42,132 bases of DNA, taken from the sequence record MN850608.1. One strand, given 5' to 3'. Position 1 is the stretch's first letter. Every line of letters begins with the position of its first letter. A program made the position numbers and the translations under genes. Origin of the DNA: Escherichia phage megetsur. The notes beneath the pieces are model-generated. The model worked only from the letters and a program-made list of their open reading frames with translations. It was not told where the DNA came from and searched no databases. This document shows, one piece after another, positions 4,712 to 41,002 of this stretch.

Positions 4712-4915
4712 ATGTTCAAAGTAATATTGTTGTTCCTGCTTCTGGTTATTATTTGGGGAGCATTGTGGGTAGGTCTTGCATCACTGGTGCTTATCCCTGC
4801 TGTCGGTGGGTCAGCCACTTCAACACTGGGCACGCTGCTCGGTATGCTGGTGGGCTGGGGTCTGATGCAGTTGAGCCTGAGTGTAGGCCAGAGCCGGAGG
4901 TGGATTAAATGGTGA
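4712..4915 (+). CDS. small hydrophobic membrane protein (67 aa), holin-like topology
   Basis: ATG 4712 with GAGGTG upstream; two hydrophobic segments and a basic C-terminus RRWIKW. Confidence 0.5.
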   Translation: MFKVILLFLLLVIIWGALWVGLASLVLIPAVGGSATSTLGTLLGMLVGWGLMQLSLSVGQSRRWIKW

Positions 4916-12056: not shown

Positions 12057-12254
12057 ATGCGAGAGTTAGAGCCGGGCGAGGTTATCGTTTACGACGAGCC
12101 TCGCGACATGTGCATGGTAATCAAAAGCCGCAGCGAGAAAGTTGAAATGAGCTACGACATGTTCTTCACTTTGAAGAAGATGATTGAGAACATGCTGATG
12201 GAGAGAGTGAATGAGCAGATTGAAACGCTTGCTTCACAATGCCGAGGAACTTGA
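12057..12254 (+). CDS. hypothetical small protein (65 aa)
   Basis: ATG 12057 after GGAGG; hairpin 12029-12044 upstream. Confidence 0.35.
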   Translation: MRELEPGEVIVYDEPRDMCMVIKSRSEKVEMSYDMFFTLKKMIENMLMERVNEQIETLASQCRGT

Positions 12255-13185
12255 TGACCAGTTTGATGGTTACGTGTCTGGTCGTATTCTGCTGTGTGAT
12301 GCTGACTCGACAGTCTACGTCGCGGCAGCAACCACGAAGAACATCGAGACGGCGAAGACACGATTCTGTTCCGGGGTACTGACTGCCAAGTTCCTCGCCA
12401 ATGCTCAGTCAGTTCGTATCGAGTTGACCGCTGCGGAGTGTACGAAAGCTGGACGGTACAAGCTGCGCGGGGCCAAGCTGTACCAAGGCAACCGAGACAA
12501 AGACCGCAAGCCCGGTCTGGTCGAGCCGTTGCGTAAAGCAATTGGCCGGAACATGTTCAACGTTCCTGATGGTGAGGACTGGTACGTTCACCTGAACTTT
12601 GAGTTCGAGGCTGACGACACCTTAATCATGGACGCATGGACGATTGGCATTAACGATGCAGTAATCTACAGCGCGGATAAAGACCTACGCTGCTGGCCGG
12701 GCAGGTTCCTCGACCCGTACGACAACAAGGTACTGGAGCCGTGCAAAGGTGTTGGCCGTCTGTGGTGGCACGAGACCAAGAGTGACAAGTCGCTGATTGG
12801 TCATGGGCCTATCTTCTTTTGGGCGCAGATGCTGATGGGTGACAGCGCCGACAACATCGCTGGTGTCAAGAAGATTGGTAAGCAGACAGCTTACGATATG
12901 CTGGTCGATTATCAGGAGACTGATGACGAGTCGGCTGTGGCTGAGTTCGTGCTCCGTGAGTACATGGTGCGCGACCAGAACCCATGGCCAGAAGCAGTGG
13001 CGTTGTGGCTGTACCGCACGCCGACCTACTCATTCGCAGCCCACCTCAATACGCTGACCTTGAGCAAGGAGCTGCGTGTCTGGCTGCATAAGAAATTGAA
13101 TGAGGAATGGTATGCGGAAAGTGACTGGCGCGACCTTGTTGCAGATGCGGAAGAATGCGATGGGCTGTCCTTGCCCACTCTGTAA
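12211..13185 (+). CDS. 5'-3' exonuclease (T7 gene 6 / FEN family)
   Basis: ILLCDADS, QGNRDKDRKP, EADDTLIMD, YSADKDLRCWP, GDSADNIAGV align with conserved blocks of T7 gp6. Confidence 0.85.
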   Translation: MSRLKRLLHNAEELDDQFDGYVSGRILLCDADSTVYVAAATTKNIETAKTRFCSGVLTAKFLANAQSVRIELTAAECTKAGRYKLRGAKLYQGNRDKDRKPGLVEPLRKAIGRNMFNVPDGEDWYVHLNFEFEADDTLIMDAWTIGINDAVIYSADKDLRCWPGRFLDPYDNKVLEPCKGVGRLWWHETKSDKSLIGHGPIFFWAQMLMGDSADNIAGVKKIGKQTAYDMLVDYQETDDESAVAEFVLREYMVRDQNPWPEAVALWLYRTPTYSFAAHLNTLTLSKELRVWLHKKLNEEWYAESDWRDLVADAEECDGLSLPTL

Positions 13186-15330: not shown

Positions 15331-15901
15331 GAAAGGTCAGAAGTTTATCTTAGACCCGGCACGCAACTGGGGTACTGGCACGCTGCTGAGCGACATTGCT
15401 GAGCAAGGTATCATCCTGACGTACGACGAACCGTACGATGTGCCGAATGACAGCCGCGATTACTACACCTGCGTGAAGGATGGCAAGACCCACACTCTGG
15501 TACTGGAGCCATTCGAGGTGAAAGAAGTTGAGACTGCATTCATCCCGGTTGACCCGTACGACCCGGCCAGTGATGTTGAGGTGGCCGTGGCCAAGAGTGC
15601 CGGGCCGGGAGGTATGAAGTTCGACGGCGGCAAGCCCCGCATGTCACTGCTGTTCGATGGCTGCCCGAATGCACTGGAGGCTGTAGCCAGCGTGCTCACC
15701 TTCGGCGCTGAGAAGTATGCAGCCCACTCGTGGCAGACTGTGCCGGAAGGTGAGGAACGCTACAAGTCAGCACTGCTCCGTCACCTGACGGCGGTGGGTA
15801 AGGGTGAGGAACTGGATAGCGAATCCAACCTGCACCATCTGGCGCACGCTGCGTGCAATGCGCTGTTCATTCTGGAACTCGAATTAAGGAAACGCAAATG
15901 A
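15323..15901 (+). CDS. hypothetical protein; C-terminal all-alpha domain possibly nucleotide pyrophosphohydrolase-like
   Basis: ATG 15323 with GGAGG 7 nt upstream; the domain assignment is from memory and tentative. Confidence 0.4.
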   Translation: MGKKGQKFILDPARNWGTGTLLSDIAEQGIILTYDEPYDVPNDSRDYYTCVKDGKTHTLVLEPFEVKEVETAFIPVDPYDPASDVEVAVAKSAGPGGMKFDGGKPRMSLLFDGCPNALEAVASVLTFGAEKYAAHSWQTVPEGEERYKSALLRHLTAVGKGEELDSESNLHHLAHAACNALFILELELRKRK

Positions 15902-16104
15902 GTGTTTTACTTTGGATTGTAGCTGTGGTATGGTTTGCCCTGTTCTCTGTTGTCTGGCTGCGTGTGACCAGTACAACAAGACACACGTTGACAGGTCTGG
16001 TGCAGCAGGATTTATCCTGTGGGTATTCTTGGCTGTCATCCCTGCTATTCTGTTTGCCTGTCTTGCGTAGGAGATTGTATGAGTCGTTATCAAAGAGCCA
16101 TTGA
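15898..16104 (+). CDS. small membrane protein (68 aa), two hydrophobic segments
   Basis: ATG 15898 with AAGGA upstream; hydrophobic LLWIVAVVWFALFSVVWL and SWLSSLLFCLPVL, then RRRL. Confidence 0.4.
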   Translation: MSVLLWIVAVVWFALFSVVWLRVTSTTRHTLTGLVQQDLSCGYSWLSSLLFCLPVLRRRLYESLSKSH

Positions 16105-35603: not shown

Positions 35604-35909
35604 ATGGCATCCGTGAATAAGCAGCTCGACGGGCTGCACCGGATGCTGGTGGAGTATCTGTCCGACCGCTTGGCCGACGCTCGTAGGAAAGATGAACACG
35701 GCAATATCATCGAACCTATGGCGGCGGCTGAGCTGTCCGTACTTCGCCAGTTCCTGAAAGATAACGGTATTCAGGCTGATAAAGACCACGCCGACGATTT
35801 ACTCGCGCTGCAAGAGCAGCTCAATAACGAGAAAACGGAAGCAGGTCGTAAAGATATCATGTCTGCTGCCATCAACTCAATCGCAGAAGATAGCGGGATG
35901 ATGCACTAA
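35604..35909 (+). CDS. terminase small subunit
   Basis: 101 aa directly upstream of the large terminase; AAGGAG RBS. Confidence 0.55.
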   Translation: MASVNKQLDGLHRMLVEYLSDRLADARRKDEHGNIIEPMAAAELSVLRQFLKDNGIQADKDHADDLLALQEQLNNEKTEAGRKDIMSAAINSIAEDSGMMH

Positions 35910-37669
35910 TGGATTTACAACGCCGCATGGTGATGGCAGGAATCGTTCGCGCTCACTACGAGAACAACTTCCCGCTATTCCTGCATGACTACTTCGCATG
36001 GCTGGGCTTTGACCTCACTGAAATGCAGCTCGACATTGGCCGCTACATGGCCGACAGGACGCTCAAGAACAAGTGCGTCATGGCGCAGCGTGGTGAGGCA
36101 AAGTCCACCATCGGTATTGCTCGCGCTCTGTACGAATTTGTGCAGATGCCGAACGCCACTGTCCTGCTTGTGTCCGGTTCCGACGACTATGCTGGTACGC
36201 TGTCGCACGCTATCGTGTCGGCTATCATGCAATGGGAACGTCTGGAATGGCTTAAGCCAGAGACTCGCGCTGGCGCACGTACGTCATTTACTGACGGCTT
36301 CGACGTGCATCACGCCTTCCGTATCCCTGACAAACAACCCTCTGTAAAAGCGGTCGGTATCTTCGGCCAGTTGCAGGGGAACCACGTATCGCTGTTGATT
36401 GCCGATGACGTGGAGACTACCAGTAACGGTAGCTCTCCTGCCAACCGCGCCCGTATCAACACCCTGACCAAAGAGTTCGCGGCTATCGCCAACGATGGTG
36501 CAGAGATTCTGTACCTCGGCACGCCACAGACTCAAGACTCCATCTACAACACGCTCCCACAGCGTGGCTTCGACGTTCGCATCTGGCCCGGTCGTTTCCC
36601 AACGGTTGAGGAAGAAGAACGCTACGGCGGCTGTCTGGCCCCGTGGATTAAGCAGAAGATGGAAGGCCACCCTGAGCTGCGTACCGGACACGGTATCCTT
36701 GGGAACCGTGGCGCACAGACTGACCCGCAACGCTACTCCGAAGAAAAGCAGTTGCAGAACGAACGAGACTACCAGCAGGCAGGCTTCCAGTTGCAGTTCA
36801 TGCTGGATACGTCGCTGTCGGATGCGCTCAAACAAACGTTACATCTCAAAGACTTAATCTTCTTCCACGGCTCAACGCAGTCTGCGCCGGAGGTTCTGCA
36901 TTGGTCGAACCACCCGCGCCATGCCGCCGAGCTGCCACTGGATTTCCCACTGGCTCGTGCTCAGCTATTCTTGGCTGCTGATTTCTCGGACACTTATGTA
37001 CCATTCGAAAATACCTCGGCGTTTCTTGACCCTGCTGGTGGTGGGTCGGACGAATCAGTTATCATTGCCACCGCTTCTGTCGGCCCGTTTATCCACGTCA
37101 TCGGTATGCACGTCTACCACGGCGGCCAGACGGAGGAAAACATCAAGGCGGCGGTAGAGTGGCTCGCTGAAACCGGGGTTAAACGGCTGGTCATTGAGGA
37201 TAACATGGGCCACGGCACCGTGACCAACATGTACCGAGGTGAGATTAAGCGCCAGAGCTTGACGATTGGCTGTGAAGGCGTGTATTCGTCCGGCCAGAAA
37301 GAGGTGCGTATCATCAACCGCCTTGGCCCAATCATGCAGCGCCACCGTGTAGTTGTACACTGGTGCGTTGTTGAAGAAGACCTGCGGCTGTGTCGCGGGA
37401 TGAACAACGGTGGTCGAGAGTTCAGCCTGTTCTGGCAGCTCCAGAACCTGACACAAGACCGTCAATCCATCCCACACGATGACCGTATCGAAACCCTATC
37501 TGCTGCCGTGTACCTGCACGCCGAGGTGCTACAGCAGGACGAACATGAAGAAGCTGCCAAGCGCGAGACGGCTGCCGCACGCGAGTTCCTTGCCAACCCT
37601 ATGGGTTACGATGACTCGAAGTGGCGTAGCCATAAACCTGTGCGCGGCACGCGACGGAGAATCAAATAA
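35909..37669 (+). CDS. terminase large subunit
   Basis: 586 aa, same length class as T7 gp19; P-loop-like RGEAKST near the N-terminus. Confidence 0.8.
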   Translation: MDLQRRMVMAGIVRAHYENNFPLFLHDYFAWLGFDLTEMQLDIGRYMADRTLKNKCVMAQRGEAKSTIGIARALYEFVQMPNATVLLVSGSDDYAGTLSHAIVSAIMQWERLEWLKPETRAGARTSFTDGFDVHHAFRIPDKQPSVKAVGIFGQLQGNHVSLLIADDVETTSNGSSPANRARINTLTKEFAAIANDGAEILYLGTPQTQDSIYNTLPQRGFDVRIWPGRFPTVEEEERYGGCLAPWIKQKMEGHPELRTGHGILGNRGAQTDPQRYSEEKQLQNERDYQQAGFQLQFMLDTSLSDALKQTLHLKDLIFFHGSTQSAPEVLHWSNHPRHAAELPLDFPLARAQLFLAADFSDTYVPFENTSAFLDPAGGGSDESVIIATASVGPFIHVIGMHVYHGGQTEENIKAAVEWLAETGVKRLVIEDNMGHGTVTNMYRGEIKRQSLTIGCEGVYSSGQKEVRIINRLGPIMQRHRVVVHWCVVEEDLRLCRGMNNGGREFSLFWQLQNLTQDRQSIPHDDRIETLSAAVYLHAEVLQQDEHEEAAKRETAAAREFLANPMGYDDSKWRSHKPVRGTRRRIK

Positions 37670-38349
37670 TGTCCATCATCACCATCACTGATGCACAGCG
37701 TTATGAGCTTGGCTATCGCTGCGGTATCGCAGCTAATGTGACTCAACGCTTTATCAATGATACCCGTATAGTGACGGCAGCTCAGGCTGCTGATATTGAA
37801 ACGGCTATCACCAATCTGGTGGCGGCACTTGAGGCGGCTGGCTATGCTGGTACGCCGGAAGGTTCCGCTCTGCTGGCTGACGGCGCTACTGTATCTGTGG
37901 TCAACTCCGCAGGTAACGATGCGCACAATGCCACAGCCAACGTTACTGGCACCACGCTGGATAACGTACAGCTCGTCCTGTCTACCGCAGCACTGGTAGA
38001 CCACACTGACTCAACTGAGATTCGTCGCTTCGACGGCTCTATCCTCGGCATCACCACTGCCACCGCCCGTGTAGCTGACGGCCTGCTGAGCAATGTGCGG
38101 CTCCCGGCTAACGCCGATGCAGTGCTTAACGGTTCGACTTACTCCATCCGTAACTCTGCTGGTGCTGACGCTCATAACGCCACTGCTCTCGTGGCAAGCA
38201 ACGGTGCCCTCACTGGCTTTAACCTCGCCGCTACTGTGGCCATGGTGGATAACGGTGATGCACTGGCTATCCCGGTAACTGGCACCTACGTGGATACTGT
38301 TACCTTCACTGTCGCTAGTGGTGTAATCACTGGCATCGCACTCTCTTAA
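37669..38349 (+). CDS. hypothetical Ser/Thr/Ala/Asn-rich protein with an internal ~50-aa tandem repeat
   Basis: Repeat units ...NSAGNDAHNATANVTG... and ...NSAGADAHNATALVAS...; TAATG overlap with the terminase stop. Confidence 0.5.
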   Translation: MSIITITDAQRYELGYRCGIAANVTQRFINDTRIVTAAQAADIETAITNLVAALEAAGYAGTPEGSALLADGATVSVVNSAGNDAHNATANVTGTTLDNVQLVLSTAALVDHTDSTEIRRFDGSILGITTATARVADGLLSNVRLPANADAVLNGSTYSIRNSAGADAHNATALVASNGALTGFNLAATVAMVDNGDALAIPVTGTYVDTVTFTVASGVITGIALS

Positions 38350-38360
38350 GGAGAATCTTT

Positions 38361-38555
38361 ATGGCACTTGTTGACTCTACCGCTGCTGAACGTGCGGAGT
38401 TCGTGGCAGCCTGCAATATGGCGGCCAAGTATCTGAACGTTTGGACGGAAGACTACTTCTTCGATACCACCAACACTGAGCTGGTGGTGTATTACCAAGA
38501 GTCCGTGACCCGTGTTCAAACGGCGCTCACTAACCTGACGAACGCCGCAGCGTAA
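38361..38555 (+). CDS. hypothetical protein (64 aa)
   Basis: ATG 38361 with AAGGAG upstream. Confidence 0.45.
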   Translation: MALVDSTAAERAEFVAACNMAAKYLNVWTEDYFFDTTNTELVVYYQESVTRVQTALTNLTNAAA

Positions 38556-38565
38556 GGGGTATCTC

Positions 38566-39054
38566 ATGAAACTGTCTCGGCTAATGGCCGGGGCAGTCCT
38601 ATCAGCGTCGCTGACTCTGACGGGCTGCTCCGCAACTAGCGCACTGTCTGCTGTAACTTCGGCTGTATCTCCCAATAAGCCGGAACTGACGGCTCAGGTA
38701 GGTGCAGAAAATACGAAGCAAGGTATCGGTGTGACTGCGAAACAGTCCGATGAAACCGAAGTCGGTGACGTATCTGGCAACGCGAAAGTGGATACCGCTA
38801 AGCAGGGTTCGAATGGCACATCCATCAAGGACGTATCAGGAGGCTCTGTAAACGCTTCTAAGCAGGGGTCGCAAATGACCCAAGGAAACGTACAGGCTCG
38901 CACGGTTATCGTCTCTCAGAGCGACCCACGCAGCCTCCTATGGGCTTTCGGCATGGGCCTTACGTGTATCCTTGGTTTAGTCATGTGGTTTGTACCATCT
39001 CCGTGGAAAAGGAAAGTGAAAGATGACGGAAGCAAAGAAGGAGCCATCTCCTAA
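38566..39054 (+). CDS. lipoprotein with C-terminal transmembrane anchor; candidate unimolecular spanin
   Basis: Signal peptide MKLSRLMAGAVLSASLTLTG|C with lipobox LTGC; C-terminal hydrophobic LLWAFGMGLTCILGLVMWFV followed by KRKVK. Confidence 0.5.
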   Translation: MKLSRLMAGAVLSASLTLTGCSATSALSAVTSAVSPNKPELTAQVGAENTKQGIGVTAKQSDETEVGDVSGNAKVDTAKQGSNGTSIKDVSGGSVNASKQGSQMTQGNVQARTVIVSQSDPRSLLWAFGMGLTCILGLVMWFVPSPWKRKVKDDGSKEGAIS

Positions 39055-39406
39055 CATCCACTCGCGTATGGGTGCAGTGGAGGCTCGTATGCAGACCGTA
39101 GAACTTCGACTTGACAAGCACGAGGTACAAATCGCCACTCTTGAAAAGGGCGATGCTGCAATGATTTCCAAGCTGGCTGAGAACGACCTCCGCTGGCAGA
39201 CGGTTCAACAGCAGCTCCTTGTGGTTGAGCAAATTCAGGACATTCAAAAGACTATGAGCCATATCGGTAAGTTGTTTACGGCGGCGGCTCACGCTGTCAA
39301 ATGGTGTCTCTTAACTGCATCCCTGTGTAGCGGTATCTACTTAGCAATCAAGGCTGGTGACTTAAGCTCACTGCAAGCCTTCATCACTACACTACTGGGG
39401 ATGTAA
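39023..39406 (+). CDS. coiled-coil protein with C-terminal hydrophobic segment; possible holin or lysis accessory protein
   Basis: 127 aa; C-terminal AVKWCLLTASLCSGIYLAI; sits between the lipoprotein and the endolysin. Confidence 0.4.
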   Translation: MTEAKKEPSPNIHSRMGAVEARMQTVELRLDKHEVQIATLEKGDAAMISKLAENDLRWQTVQQQLLVVEQIQDIQKTMSHIGKLFTAAAHAVKWCLLTASLCSGIYLAIKAGDLSSLQAFITTLLGM

Positions 39407-39942
39407 TGACTAACTTTGAAATCTGTATGCGGTTCACCGGGCTGGCAGAAGGTGGTTACACCAAGCTGCCCGGCGATACCGGAGGGGAAACGAATCATGG
39501 AATTAGCGACGCTCGTGATGGCAAACTGGATGGCAGAGCTTGTGGTGTCCCTACTGGGCTTGGCGGTACTATTTGCGTGCCTATCAAAGCCCTCACCAAA
39601 GCACAAGCCGAAGCAATCTATCGACGGGATTACTACGCCCCCATCCGAGGTGACGAGCTTCACCCTGCGATTGCATGTGCCGTGTTTGACTACGGTGTCA
39701 ACTCCGGTGTCTCCCGTGCGGCGAAAGCTCTACAGCGGGTATGCGGCGTTGCACAAGACGGGATTGTTGGCCCTGCTACCGTGGCAGCAGCCAAACGTCT
39801 GGAACCTCACTCCGCAGCAGCAGCCATCTGTGACCTTCGTATTGCGTTCCTAAAGGCTTCTACAGCCCCGACAGTGGTTCGCTATAGGGATGCCTTGGTT
39901 GCTCGTGCAAAACGCTGTAGCGCTTACTGTGCGACGCTGTAG
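39406..39942 (+). CDS. endolysin, glycoside hydrolase family 108-like catalytic domain with C-terminal peptidoglycan-binding domain
   Basis: LAEGGYTKLPGDTGGETNHGIS resembles the GH108 signature; C-terminal region resembles PG_binding_3; no N-terminal SAR/TM segment. Confidence 0.7.
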   Translation: MTNFEICMRFTGLAEGGYTKLPGDTGGETNHGISDARDGKLDGRACGVPTGLGGTICVPIKALTKAQAEAIYRRDYYAPIRGDELHPAIACAVFDYGVNSGVSRAAKALQRVCGVAQDGIVGPATVAAAKRLEPHSAAAAICDLRIAFLKASTAPTVVRYRDALVARAKRCSAYCATL

Positions 39943-40059
39943 GGGTATCCAAAAGCTGACGCAATGAACAGGCCGTGGGTGCAATACCCCGGCTTGAAAA
40001 TTGCACGTTTATGCTTGCCCCTCCCTCGACCCAAATGACCGCGCGTGCCCCCATAGCGT

Positions 40060-40530
40060 GTGCGCGGATTAGCCTCGCGACGTGCGCGATATTTGCTCGC
40101 GTGCGCTGCGCGGCGCGTCAAGAGGATTGCCTGCGTGCGGTATAGCTCGTGCGTGTCGCGTTTCATCGTCTGCCGTGTGGCGTGCTGTGCGCTGTCCTGC
40201 TGGCTGTGCTGTGCGGTGCTGTCCTATGGGGACGCTCTGCGCTGGCTGTGCGGTGCTGCGTGCTGCGCTCGGTCGGGCGGGTATCTGTCTCTTTTGCTCG
40301 CAAGCTCTGCGCCGTGGTGGTGCTGTGTGGTGGCGGTGGTGCTGCCGTGGTGCTGTCCTGTCTGCTGGCCTACTGTCTGCGCCGCCAGCTCTGCGCGTCA
40401 TGCTCTGCTACTGTGTCACCTGTCCTACTGCGTTCACTGGCTGCCGCCTGTCATCCTGTCGGATTCCATCCGTTGCCGTTCCGCGCTCGCTTGTTTCGGC
40501 TGCGCCGCGCTCGCTCTGCGTATCTAGCGA
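40060..40530 (+). repeat. strand-skewed G/T-rich low-complexity tract (A-poor on + strand)
   Basis: Reiterated GCTGTG, GTGGTG, CTGCGC units; three + frames and one - frame stay open, which is composition-driven and not coding. Confidence 0.7.
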
Positions 40531-40535
40531 TACTA

Positions 40536-40556
40536 TATCACTATAGACACTTTCAT
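40536..40556 (-). promoter_or_regulatory. copy D (inverted) of the 21-bp element ATGAAAGTGTCTATAGTGATA
   Basis: Exact reverse complement of 18857-18877; flank similarity extends to about 50 bp; the + strand here reads TCACTATAG, identical to T7 promoter positions -8 to +1. Confidence 0.4.
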
Positions 40557-40562
40557 AATTAT

Positions 40563-40583
40563 CTAATGATTACAGTAACTTAT
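40563..40583 (+). repeat. 21-bp direct repeat, copy 1 (CTAATGATTACAGTAACTTAT)
   Basis: Exact second copy at 40642-40662; contains palindromic core TTACAGTAA. Confidence 0.85.
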
Positions 40584-40641
40584 GACCTATCTGATAACGG
40601 TATTCTATCCAGTGTTGTGATTATCCAATCAAACTTTAATC

Positions 40642-40662
40642 CTAATGATTACAGTAACTTAT
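40642..40662 (+). repeat. 21-bp direct repeat, copy 2
   Basis: Identical to 40563-40583, 79 bp downstream. Confidence 0.85.
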
Positions 40663-40683
40663 CACTTTTCTTGAAAATAATAC

Positions 40684-40713
40684 TTGCAAACTGTTTTGGT
40701 TATGTGCTGTAAT
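40684..40713 (+). promoter_or_regulatory. sigma70-type promoter P0 (TTGCAA-N18-TGcTGTAAT)
   Basis: -35 TTGCAA at 40684-40689, extended -10 TGCTGTAAT at 40705-40713. Confidence 0.5.
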
Positions 40714-40785
40714 TCATCACGTCTAAAGGCACTAGCCCAGTAGACACAGACAGACGGTAGCATCGCTCTTTAACAATCTGGTGTG

Positions 40786-40814
40786 TTGACAAGGCAAGCT
40801 CACTATGCTGTAAT
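40786..40814 (+). promoter_or_regulatory. sigma70-type early promoter P1 (TTGACA-N17-TGcTGTAAT)
   Basis: Consensus -35 TTGACA, 17-nt spacer, extended -10 TGCTGTAAT. Confidence 0.6.
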
Positions 40815-40922
40815 GCTTCCAGTCAGCCAGACAAGCCAAATAGTGATGGATAAACACGTTAACACCCGCGTAGGCTAACTGGTACGGTTTAATTAACTCA
40901 GAACGGGCGCTGATTAAATCGG

Positions 40923-40951
40923 TTGACAGGATGAAACGAGTATGCTGTAAT
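40923..40951 (+). promoter_or_regulatory. sigma70-type early promoter P2 (TTGACA-N17-TGcTGTAAT)
   Basis: Same architecture as P1. Confidence 0.6.
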
Positions 40952-41002
40952 ACACACCAGATTGACAGGGCAGCAAGCCAGTCAGTCAGAAGTAAAAAGT
41001 AG

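Follow-up and report, generated by a model that had tools for sequence, protein, structure and literature searches.

A tail-anchored coiled-coil protein as candidate non-canonical holin in the lysis cluster of Escherichia phage megetsur

The lysis cluster of Escherichia phage megetsur (sequence record MN850608.1), analysed here within a stretch of 42,132 nucleotides (the window), encodes a 127-amino-acid (aa) protein (39023–39406, + strand) with an N-terminal coiled coil and a single hydrophobic segment near its C-terminus, which is best read as the holin, or a subunit of the holin, for the soluble GH108 muramidase encoded immediately downstream. Its conserved genomic context makes a role in lysis very probable, and the probability that it is the sole holin is put at roughly 0.55. 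Holins, an extremely varied group, set the time of phage lysis; a tail-anchored coiled-coil holin, if this assignment is true, would represent a new topology, raising the question of how post-translational insertion could make a precise clock, and would close the missing-holin gap left by Kongari et al. for the related phages J8-65 and LIMEzero. Were a 67-aa gene elsewhere in the genome the holin, the cluster would be an ordinary cassette with one accessory protein. What is new here is the 127-aa protein and its conserved context, the unimolecular spanin (u-spanin) and the endolysin beside it being members of ordinary known families.

A predicted tail-anchored protein conserved upstream of soluble endolysins

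Homologues of the 127-aa protein in cultured phages are confined to Bonnellvirus, the type phage of which is J8-65, and to LIMEzero (21 records, all annotated 'hypothetical'); no others came up among 50,697 phage genomes in a tblastn search with two distant members of the family, and contigs from IMG/VR and JGI metagenomes yielded no new family members. When 1.84 billion representative proteins were searched with a profile, a handful of full-length relatives came up, with 21–30% identity and the same architecture, and a second profile search added further distant relatives; E20, L65 and G112–D113 are invariant in the distant homologues. The genomic context of nine of them has been examined on metagenomic contigs, where eight (P0035, P0036, P0037, P0039, P0040, P0092, P0094 and P0095) have a PF00959 (T4-lysozyme-type) gene as their immediate downstream neighbour, with a one-base overlap at five loci and a gap of 1–30 nt at three. 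On the ninth contig (P0038), only the first 23 codons of the downstream open reading frame (ORF) are present; it too overlaps by one base, and its sequence is similar to the N-termini of the PF00959 lysozymes. Wherever a contig covers the upstream region, the locus stands just after the gene for a T7-type large terminase subunit, and at two loci (L017 and L018) a T1-type u-spanin gene lies immediately upstream, as in the window. The lysozymes have no N-terminal hydrophobic segment at the seven loci with an intact gene, the gene at the eighth (L033) being split and not usefully scanned, and no further credible membrane ORF was found in the six distant-homologue loci scanned. It is because the distant homologues directly precede soluble endolysins that the 127-aa protein is read as a holin: as judged from comparison of these loci, the family and its soluble endolysins, which belong to two unrelated catalytic families, are passed on as one block, in the place expected of a holin.

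A very basic 41–42-aa ORF (phrog_3684) stands beside the lysozyme gene at L030 (10869–10994), L032 (3611–3736) and L034 (1430–1558); it is found in metagenomic relatives without a u-spanin near the cassette.

The same position is held by holins in cultured relatives. KP34-like phages have the order u-spanin, holin (a pinholin) and signal-anchor-release (SAR) endolysin (PMC4411677), and PP90 encodes the u-spanin gp53, then gp54, which matches the phrog_20 holin family (2.4e-21), then an endolysin with a hydrophobic N-terminus; the 127-aa gene occupies the exact slot of the holin in this order. Across the window, J8-65, mellemsur, Lidtsur and LIMEzero, the only membrane proteins common to Bonnellvirus and LIMEzero are the u-spanin and the 127-aa protein, and both lineages also have the soluble GH108 enzyme. 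The features of the cluster are conserved in about 20 related phage records and in LIMEzero, at 54–61% identity in the latter, and are therefore not due to chance.

Membrane segments were sought with a Kyte–Doolittle (KD) scan of every + strand ORF in the window. Within the cluster, hydrophobic segments are present only in the 162-aa u-spanin, the 127-aa protein and a +1-frame ORF lying inside the endolysin gene, and no protein there matches any holin model; a first-pass annotation of the sequence, which had seen no typical holin in the cluster and had singled out the 127-aa protein, with its C-terminal helix, as the only membrane candidate, is borne out on both points. The single hydrophobic segment of the 127-aa protein (aa 91–110, 39293–39352, KD 1.58) consists of 16 small-residue-rich positions bounded by two conserved Lys; beyond it lie a Gly-Asp invariant in the family and an amphipathic tail some 16 residues long. 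AlphaFold2, supplied with an alignment of 11 sequences, models a single helix from residue 12 to 110 and a short helix from 114 to 125 (mean predicted local distance difference test score 84.5). The coiled coil described ahead of the C-terminal helix in the first-pass annotation stands for residues 12–45, the heptad pattern of which was equalled by 2 of 5000 shuffles, and falls away for residues 45–85, which have no heptad pattern in the same test; as predicted here, it is a feature of the N-terminal third only. Lys and Arg are more numerous on the N-terminal flank of the helix (net +1 to +2) than in the tail (0 to −2), and a cytoplasmic N-terminus is therefore favoured, such that the protein would be tail-anchored and N-in. 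The sole family match is phrog_35530, of unknown function, and one of the 11 family members gives a weak match to the PHROG holin family phrog_1296 (E 0.005). No match better than E 1 came from Foldseek comparison of the AlphaFold model with viral structures, a search in which one long helix is uninformative, and the family profile found only non-significant coiled-coil matches in the PDB, mostly to trimeric coiled coils.

The 127-aa gene overlaps the u-spanin gene by 32 nt, and the N-terminal extension encoded there is conserved: 'MTE' and 'PNIHSRMGAVEARM' are invariant in Bonnellvirus, and LIMEzero has 'HNLQSRMGTQEARM'. J8-65 gp46 (NC_025445), LIMEzero ORF54 and the RZ4 ORF are annotated from an internal Met, at 105–112 aa, omitting this extension over the end of the spanin gene; since the upstream frame is conserved at the protein level, the real product is taken to be 127 aa from Met1, and several database annotations to be too short. 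An internal GGAGG (39079–39083), a possible second ribosome-binding site, precedes the ATG of Met23 (39089) by 5 nt in 11 of 11 genomes, LIMEzero included, amid variable synonymous sites; GAG accounts for 63% of Glu codons, so codon bias could explain its conservation, and the distant homologues do not keep Met23. A dual start with products of 127 and 105 aa may exist, and these signals are only suggestive of it.

In the mechanism proposed, the 127-aa protein would be made in the cytoplasm, oligomerise through its N-terminal coiled coil and be fixed in the inner membrane by the helix at its C-terminus, its N-terminus remaining cytoplasmic and some 17 residues reaching into the periplasm. On accumulation to a critical level, the small-residue-rich helices would form lesions that release the endolysin, the protein acting as holin alone or as an essential subunit, and a shorter product started at the internal Met23 could tune the timing. 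The GH108 muramidase, whose start overlaps the stop of the 127-aa gene as TAATG and which would thus be translationally coupled to it, would exit through these lesions and degrade the peptidoglycan; the u-spanin, spanning from its lipid anchor in the outer membrane to its helix anchor in the inner membrane, would then be free of the wall to disrupt the outer membrane. A more tentative extension, to which rather less than an even chance is given, is that the family constitutes a topologically new class of holin acting in Gram-negative hosts: tail-anchored, post-translationally inserted and the sole hole-former for soluble endolysins, with timing set by oligomerisation of the coiled coil and possibly by a 127/105-aa dual start.

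Several observations weigh against a holin function for the 127-aa protein, or against its acting alone. It matches no holin profile in Pfam, PHROGs or NCBIfam, and its tail past the helix, KAGDLSSLQAFITTLLGM, has a net charge of 0, in place of the charged, hydrophilic cytoplasmic C-terminus typical of holins. The membrane segment is short and weakly hydrophobic, at KD 1.58 in the window and below 1.45 in some homologues. XhlA and gp24.1, holin components of similar design, require a two-helix partner (PMC6316719), and none is present in the cluster. A holin-shaped 67-aa gene is found elsewhere in every Bonnellvirus, LIMEzero carries its own small one-helix ORF35, and most of the metagenomic contexts are short contigs that leave out early genes.

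The 67-aa early protein and other explanations

The 67-aa protein (4712–4915, + strand) is encoded in the early region, among the genes before the primase gene and about 34 kb upstream of the cassette in window coordinates. It has two hydrophobic helices in the KD scan, the second rich in Gly, Ser and Thr, and a conserved basic WIKW C-terminus, and is present in 19 of 19 Bonnellvirus records at 38–98% identity. No homologue was found in LIMEzero at E ≤ 1 or outside Bonnellvirus, and no holin profile is matched. It evolves much faster than the 127-aa protein (46% vs 83% identity in Lidtsur). Its shape is that of a class II holin or a small exclusion/immunity protein. Besides these two proteins, the genome encodes nothing else of holin shape, and the 67-aa protein could be either a rival to the 127-aa protein or its partner. 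The first-pass annotation had held that a canonical holin elsewhere in the genome, if it accounted for lysis, would overturn its account; an ORF with the outline of a class II holin is indeed present, so that this possibility bears in part on the account, and its role in lysis would be hypothetical. The available supplementary tables of Kongari et al. name no holin for J8-65 or LIMEzero (PMC6139136), and papers on Bonnellvirus do not discuss one.

Other hydrophobic ORFs of the window (15853–16104, 15912–16070 and 12239–12382) were rejected as holins, not being conserved past the nearest relative, and ORF35 of LIMEzero (one helix, 53 aa) was rejected as a shared holin, having no Bonnellvirus counterpart. 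A stretch of about 200 nt, immediately preceding the small gene that comes last before the RNA polymerase gene, encodes strongly hydrophobic peptides in two frames (15853–16104 and 15912–16070); this stretch is absent from J8-65 and common only to mellemsur, in which a 58-aa gene is annotated.

Among the rival explanations, the one given most weight, though still unlikely, is a two-component holin in which the 127-aa protein acts only together with the 67-aa protein, as XhlA does with XhlB in PBSX and gp24.1 with gp26 in SPP1, the early partner waiting in the membrane until the late 127-aa protein sets the time of lysis. XhlA and SPP1 gp24.1, the latter with a dual start, are holin components with one C-terminal helix (PMC6316719), each described as one of two cooperating holins (PMC6316719; PMC5589764), and SPP1 transcribes its two-helix holin early and the XhlA-like gp24.1 late, with both needed for membrane disruption (PMC6316719); the architecture of the 127-aa protein and the early and late positions of the two genes would fit this arrangement, as would the universal occurrence in Bonnellvirus of a two-helix protein with a basic C-terminus. 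XhlA is also the Pfam family most often matched by the 127-aa family, weakly, by 8 of 11 members (best E 0.0019), and three of the 11 match phrog_1193 'hemolysin' (best 2.5e-5). The megetsur protein itself scores 13 bits against PF10779 XhlA, with a cut-off of 34.7, and hhalign against an alignment of XhlA homologues from Bacillus phages gives a probability of 38% over 33 coiled-coil columns, such that homology to XhlA is not established; the resemblance is one of apparent design, and membership of the family is not claimed. LIMEzero, moreover, has the 127-aa homologue and the same endolysin with no recognisable 67-aa protein, a membrane-ORF scan of six metagenomic loci showed no partner close to the gene, and the supposed partner diverges much the faster of the two.

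That the 67-aa protein is itself a conventional class-II-type holin, leaving the 127-aa protein as an accessory (for example antiholin, regulator of timing or tether of the endolysin to the membrane), is less probable again. Its size, shape and universality in the genus suit this role, and the 127-aa protein fails several typical holin features; set against this are the distance of the gene from the cassette, its place among the pre-primase genes, its absence from LIMEzero and from all phages outside the genus, and its failure to match a holin profile, and the tie of the 127-aa family to soluble endolysin genes in lineages where no such partner is seen would be left unexplained. It is improbable that the 127-aa protein is unrelated to lysis, serving for example in exclusion, assembly or DNA ejection and merely adjoining the endolysin gene, with the endolysin released by an unrecognised route: the protein matches no lysis family, and tail-anchored coiled-coil proteins have many roles, but its gene has remained immediately upstream, usually with overlapping stop and start, across divergence to 21–30% identity and a change of endolysin family, and no other export route is evident for an endolysin without a signal.

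Least credible, to the point of being very improbable, is a holin encoded out of frame within the endolysin gene (39416–39853, +1 frame), where an internal Met would give 'MELATLVMANWMAELVVSLLGLAVLFACLSKPSPKHKPK...'. The holin of Staphylococcus phage 187 is reportedly encoded in this manner, and in all Bonnellviruses examined the +1 frame runs without a stop for about 118 codons starting at the internal Met, with a hydrophobic segment of KD 2.24 and then a basic stretch; the segment is, however, lost in LIMEzero, and long open alternative frames are expected in a genome of 55% G+C. Each third-position change in the endolysin alters position 2 of the overlapping codon, yet third-position diversity per 15-codon block is 0.14–0.26 in the overlap vs 0.10–0.24 outside it, with only codons 136–150 low, at 0.013. 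With its segment lost in LIMEzero and synonymous sites mostly unconstrained, the ORF is judged a non-coding frame shadow.

The u-spanin, the endolysin and the surrounding genome

The 162-aa protein (38566–39054, + strand) has a lipoprotein signal peptide (38566–38628) ending in the lipobox LTGC (aa 18–21), with the Cys21 codon at 38626–38628, and the Ser at position +2 implies predicted sorting to the outer membrane. The lipobox is kept in eight of eight aligned homologues, including T1 gp11 (LSGC), with a residue other than Asp at +2. Towards the C-terminus, a strong hydrophobic segment (aa 125–146, 38938–39003, KD 2.01) aligns with the transmembrane domain of T1 gp11 and is followed by a basic, predicted cytoplasmic tail, PSPWKRKVKDDGSKEGAIS. 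BLASTP aligns the protein with T1 gp11 over its full length at 34% identity (E 2e-16), it matches phrog_1804 'Rz-like spanin' at 6.9e-36, and tblastn finds relatives in 633 phage records (KP34-like Klebsiella, T1-like and Pectobacterium phages), often annotated as u-spanins. The eight homologues share a 'TAQVGAENTKQG.GV' core and the C-terminal helix, and none of the eight has a Cys between lipobox and helix.

The periplasmic domain contains, at aa 66–100, a repeated 'DVSGNAKVDTAKQG'-type unit, 'DVSG.(A/S)(K/V)V..(A/S)KQG', present in about one copy in PP90 and MA2, two in the window and Bonnellvirus, and three in LIMEzero. J8-65 and LIMEzero were listed by Kongari et al. in 2018 in the T1 gp11 u-spanin family, where they were termed unusually long and given a beta-strand-rich periplasmic domain pattern (PMC6139136); their length is explained by the repeated unit. 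They are also the sole members of the family without the pairing of pinholin and SAR endolysin, and complementation of the lambda Rz/Rz1 defect is demonstrated for T1 gp11 only (PMC6139136). By homology, the 162-aa protein belongs to the u-spanins typified by T1 gp11; with its J8-65 and LIMEzero orthologues catalogued in 2018, it is not a discovery of this analysis, and the T1 gp11-like topology proposed in the first-pass annotation is upheld, together with its view that no Rz/Rz1 pair is present: the helix of the 127-aa protein is C-terminal with flanking charges that favour N-in, and its gene contains no nested + strand ORF of 30 aa or more, the first 32 nt being overlapped only by the 3′ end of the u-spanin gene.

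The 178-aa endolysin (39406–39942, + strand) matches PF05838 Glyco_hydro_108 at 1.2e-21 and 77.5 bits (cut-off 21.2), phrog_315 endolysin at 4.6e-40, and the GH108 structures 7dnp (7e-24), 2ikb and 2is5 in the PDB, while PF09374 PG_binding_3 is matched at 5e-5 and 23.8 bits, just under the cut-off of 24.6. No segment anywhere in the protein reaches KD 1.5, and the N-terminus, MTNFEICMRFTGLAEGGY, has no hydrophobic segment. On these matches, the enzyme is a soluble canonical GH108 muramidase, an ordinary member of its family; lacking an export signal, it needs a holin, as had been argued from the absence of a SAR or signal sequence.

The window is a complete Bonnellvirus (J8-65/mellemsur type) genome of the Autographiviridae, with every gene on the + strand and E. 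coli K-12 as the host; 2.5 kb around the cluster has 99.3% identity to Escherichia phage mellemsur and 84–98% to other Bonnellvirus members. All four + strand ORFs assigned to the cluster in the first-pass annotation are present. The first of these, a 64-aa ORF (38361–38555), has no membrane segment and no Pfam, PHROG or NCBIfam match, and is probably not a lysis gene, though it lies within the interval given to the cluster. Its homologue follows the large terminase subunit gene in PP90 and metagenomic relatives, and it is related to the LIMEzero pair ORF51/ORF52 at E 1e-5 to 4e-5. In the window, the large terminase subunit gene (35909–37669, + strand) is directly followed by a 226-aa ORF (37669–38349, + strand), the N-terminal part of which is paralogous to that of the 64-aa ORF. 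Relatives of these two ORFs, 61–226 aa long and with no membrane segment, follow the large terminase subunit gene in every related phage and contig; several end in 'TVTFTV..G.IT.IALS', and one has a PHROG match labelled 'virion structural protein'. Past the endolysin gene, 40000–41000 is taken as non-coding; its AT skew is strongly negative (−0.19), and its only ORFs are spurious and rich in Cys/Arg. The genome ends and early promoters probably lie there, in which case the window would be circularly permuted relative to J8-65.

Comparison with known lysis systems

Characterised holins from phages infecting Gram-negative bacteria have, to our knowledge, their helices at or near the N-terminus, and full-text literature searches for tail-anchored holins returned nothing relevant. 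Like lambda S, phage 21 S68, T7 gp17.5 and T4 T, the 127-aa protein is a small membrane protein encoded beside the endolysin gene, with a possible dual start, and its small-residue-rich helix recalls those of pinholins. It differs from canonical holins in being mostly a cytoplasmic coiled coil, as predicted, with a single helix at the extreme C-terminus, so that membrane insertion would be post-translational, and in lacking both a charged C-terminal tail and sequence similarity to any holin family. Closer in design are XhlA and gp24.1 (PF10779), with an N-terminal coiled coil, a single C-terminal transmembrane helix, a gene beside endolysin or holin genes and a possible dual start. The megetsur protein departs from these in the Gram-negative host of its phage, in its length (127 aa vs 75–92 aa), in the conserved Gly-Asp and amphipathic tail past the helix, and in having no adjacent two-helix partner of the XhlB/gp26 type, either in the cluster or at six related loci.

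The u-spanin shares with the T1 gp11 family the N-terminal lipobox, the C-terminal membrane helix, the Cys-free periplasmic domain and the 'TAQVGAENTKQG.GV' core; it is longer than most, with its 'DVSGNAKVDTAKQG'-type unit repeated, and is partnered by a soluble endolysin rather than by a pinholin and SAR endolysin. The endolysin, with a GH108 domain carrying the E-G-G-Y motif and a putative PG_binding_3-type domain after it, is soluble like other GH108 endolysins (PF05838; 7dnp, 2ikb, 2is5), from which it differs in nothing notable. The cassette as a whole is most like that of KP34-like phages and PP90, in which the large terminase subunit gene is likewise followed by a small ORF, a u-spanin, a membrane protein overlapping the 3′ end of the spanin gene, and an endolysin, the u-spanins being homologous (50–56% identity to Pectobacterium phages). 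Where those phages have an 89-aa phrog_20 holin and an endolysin with a hydrophobic N-terminus, megetsur has the 127-aa tail-anchored coiled-coil protein and a soluble GH108 enzyme, the two genes having been exchanged as a pair.

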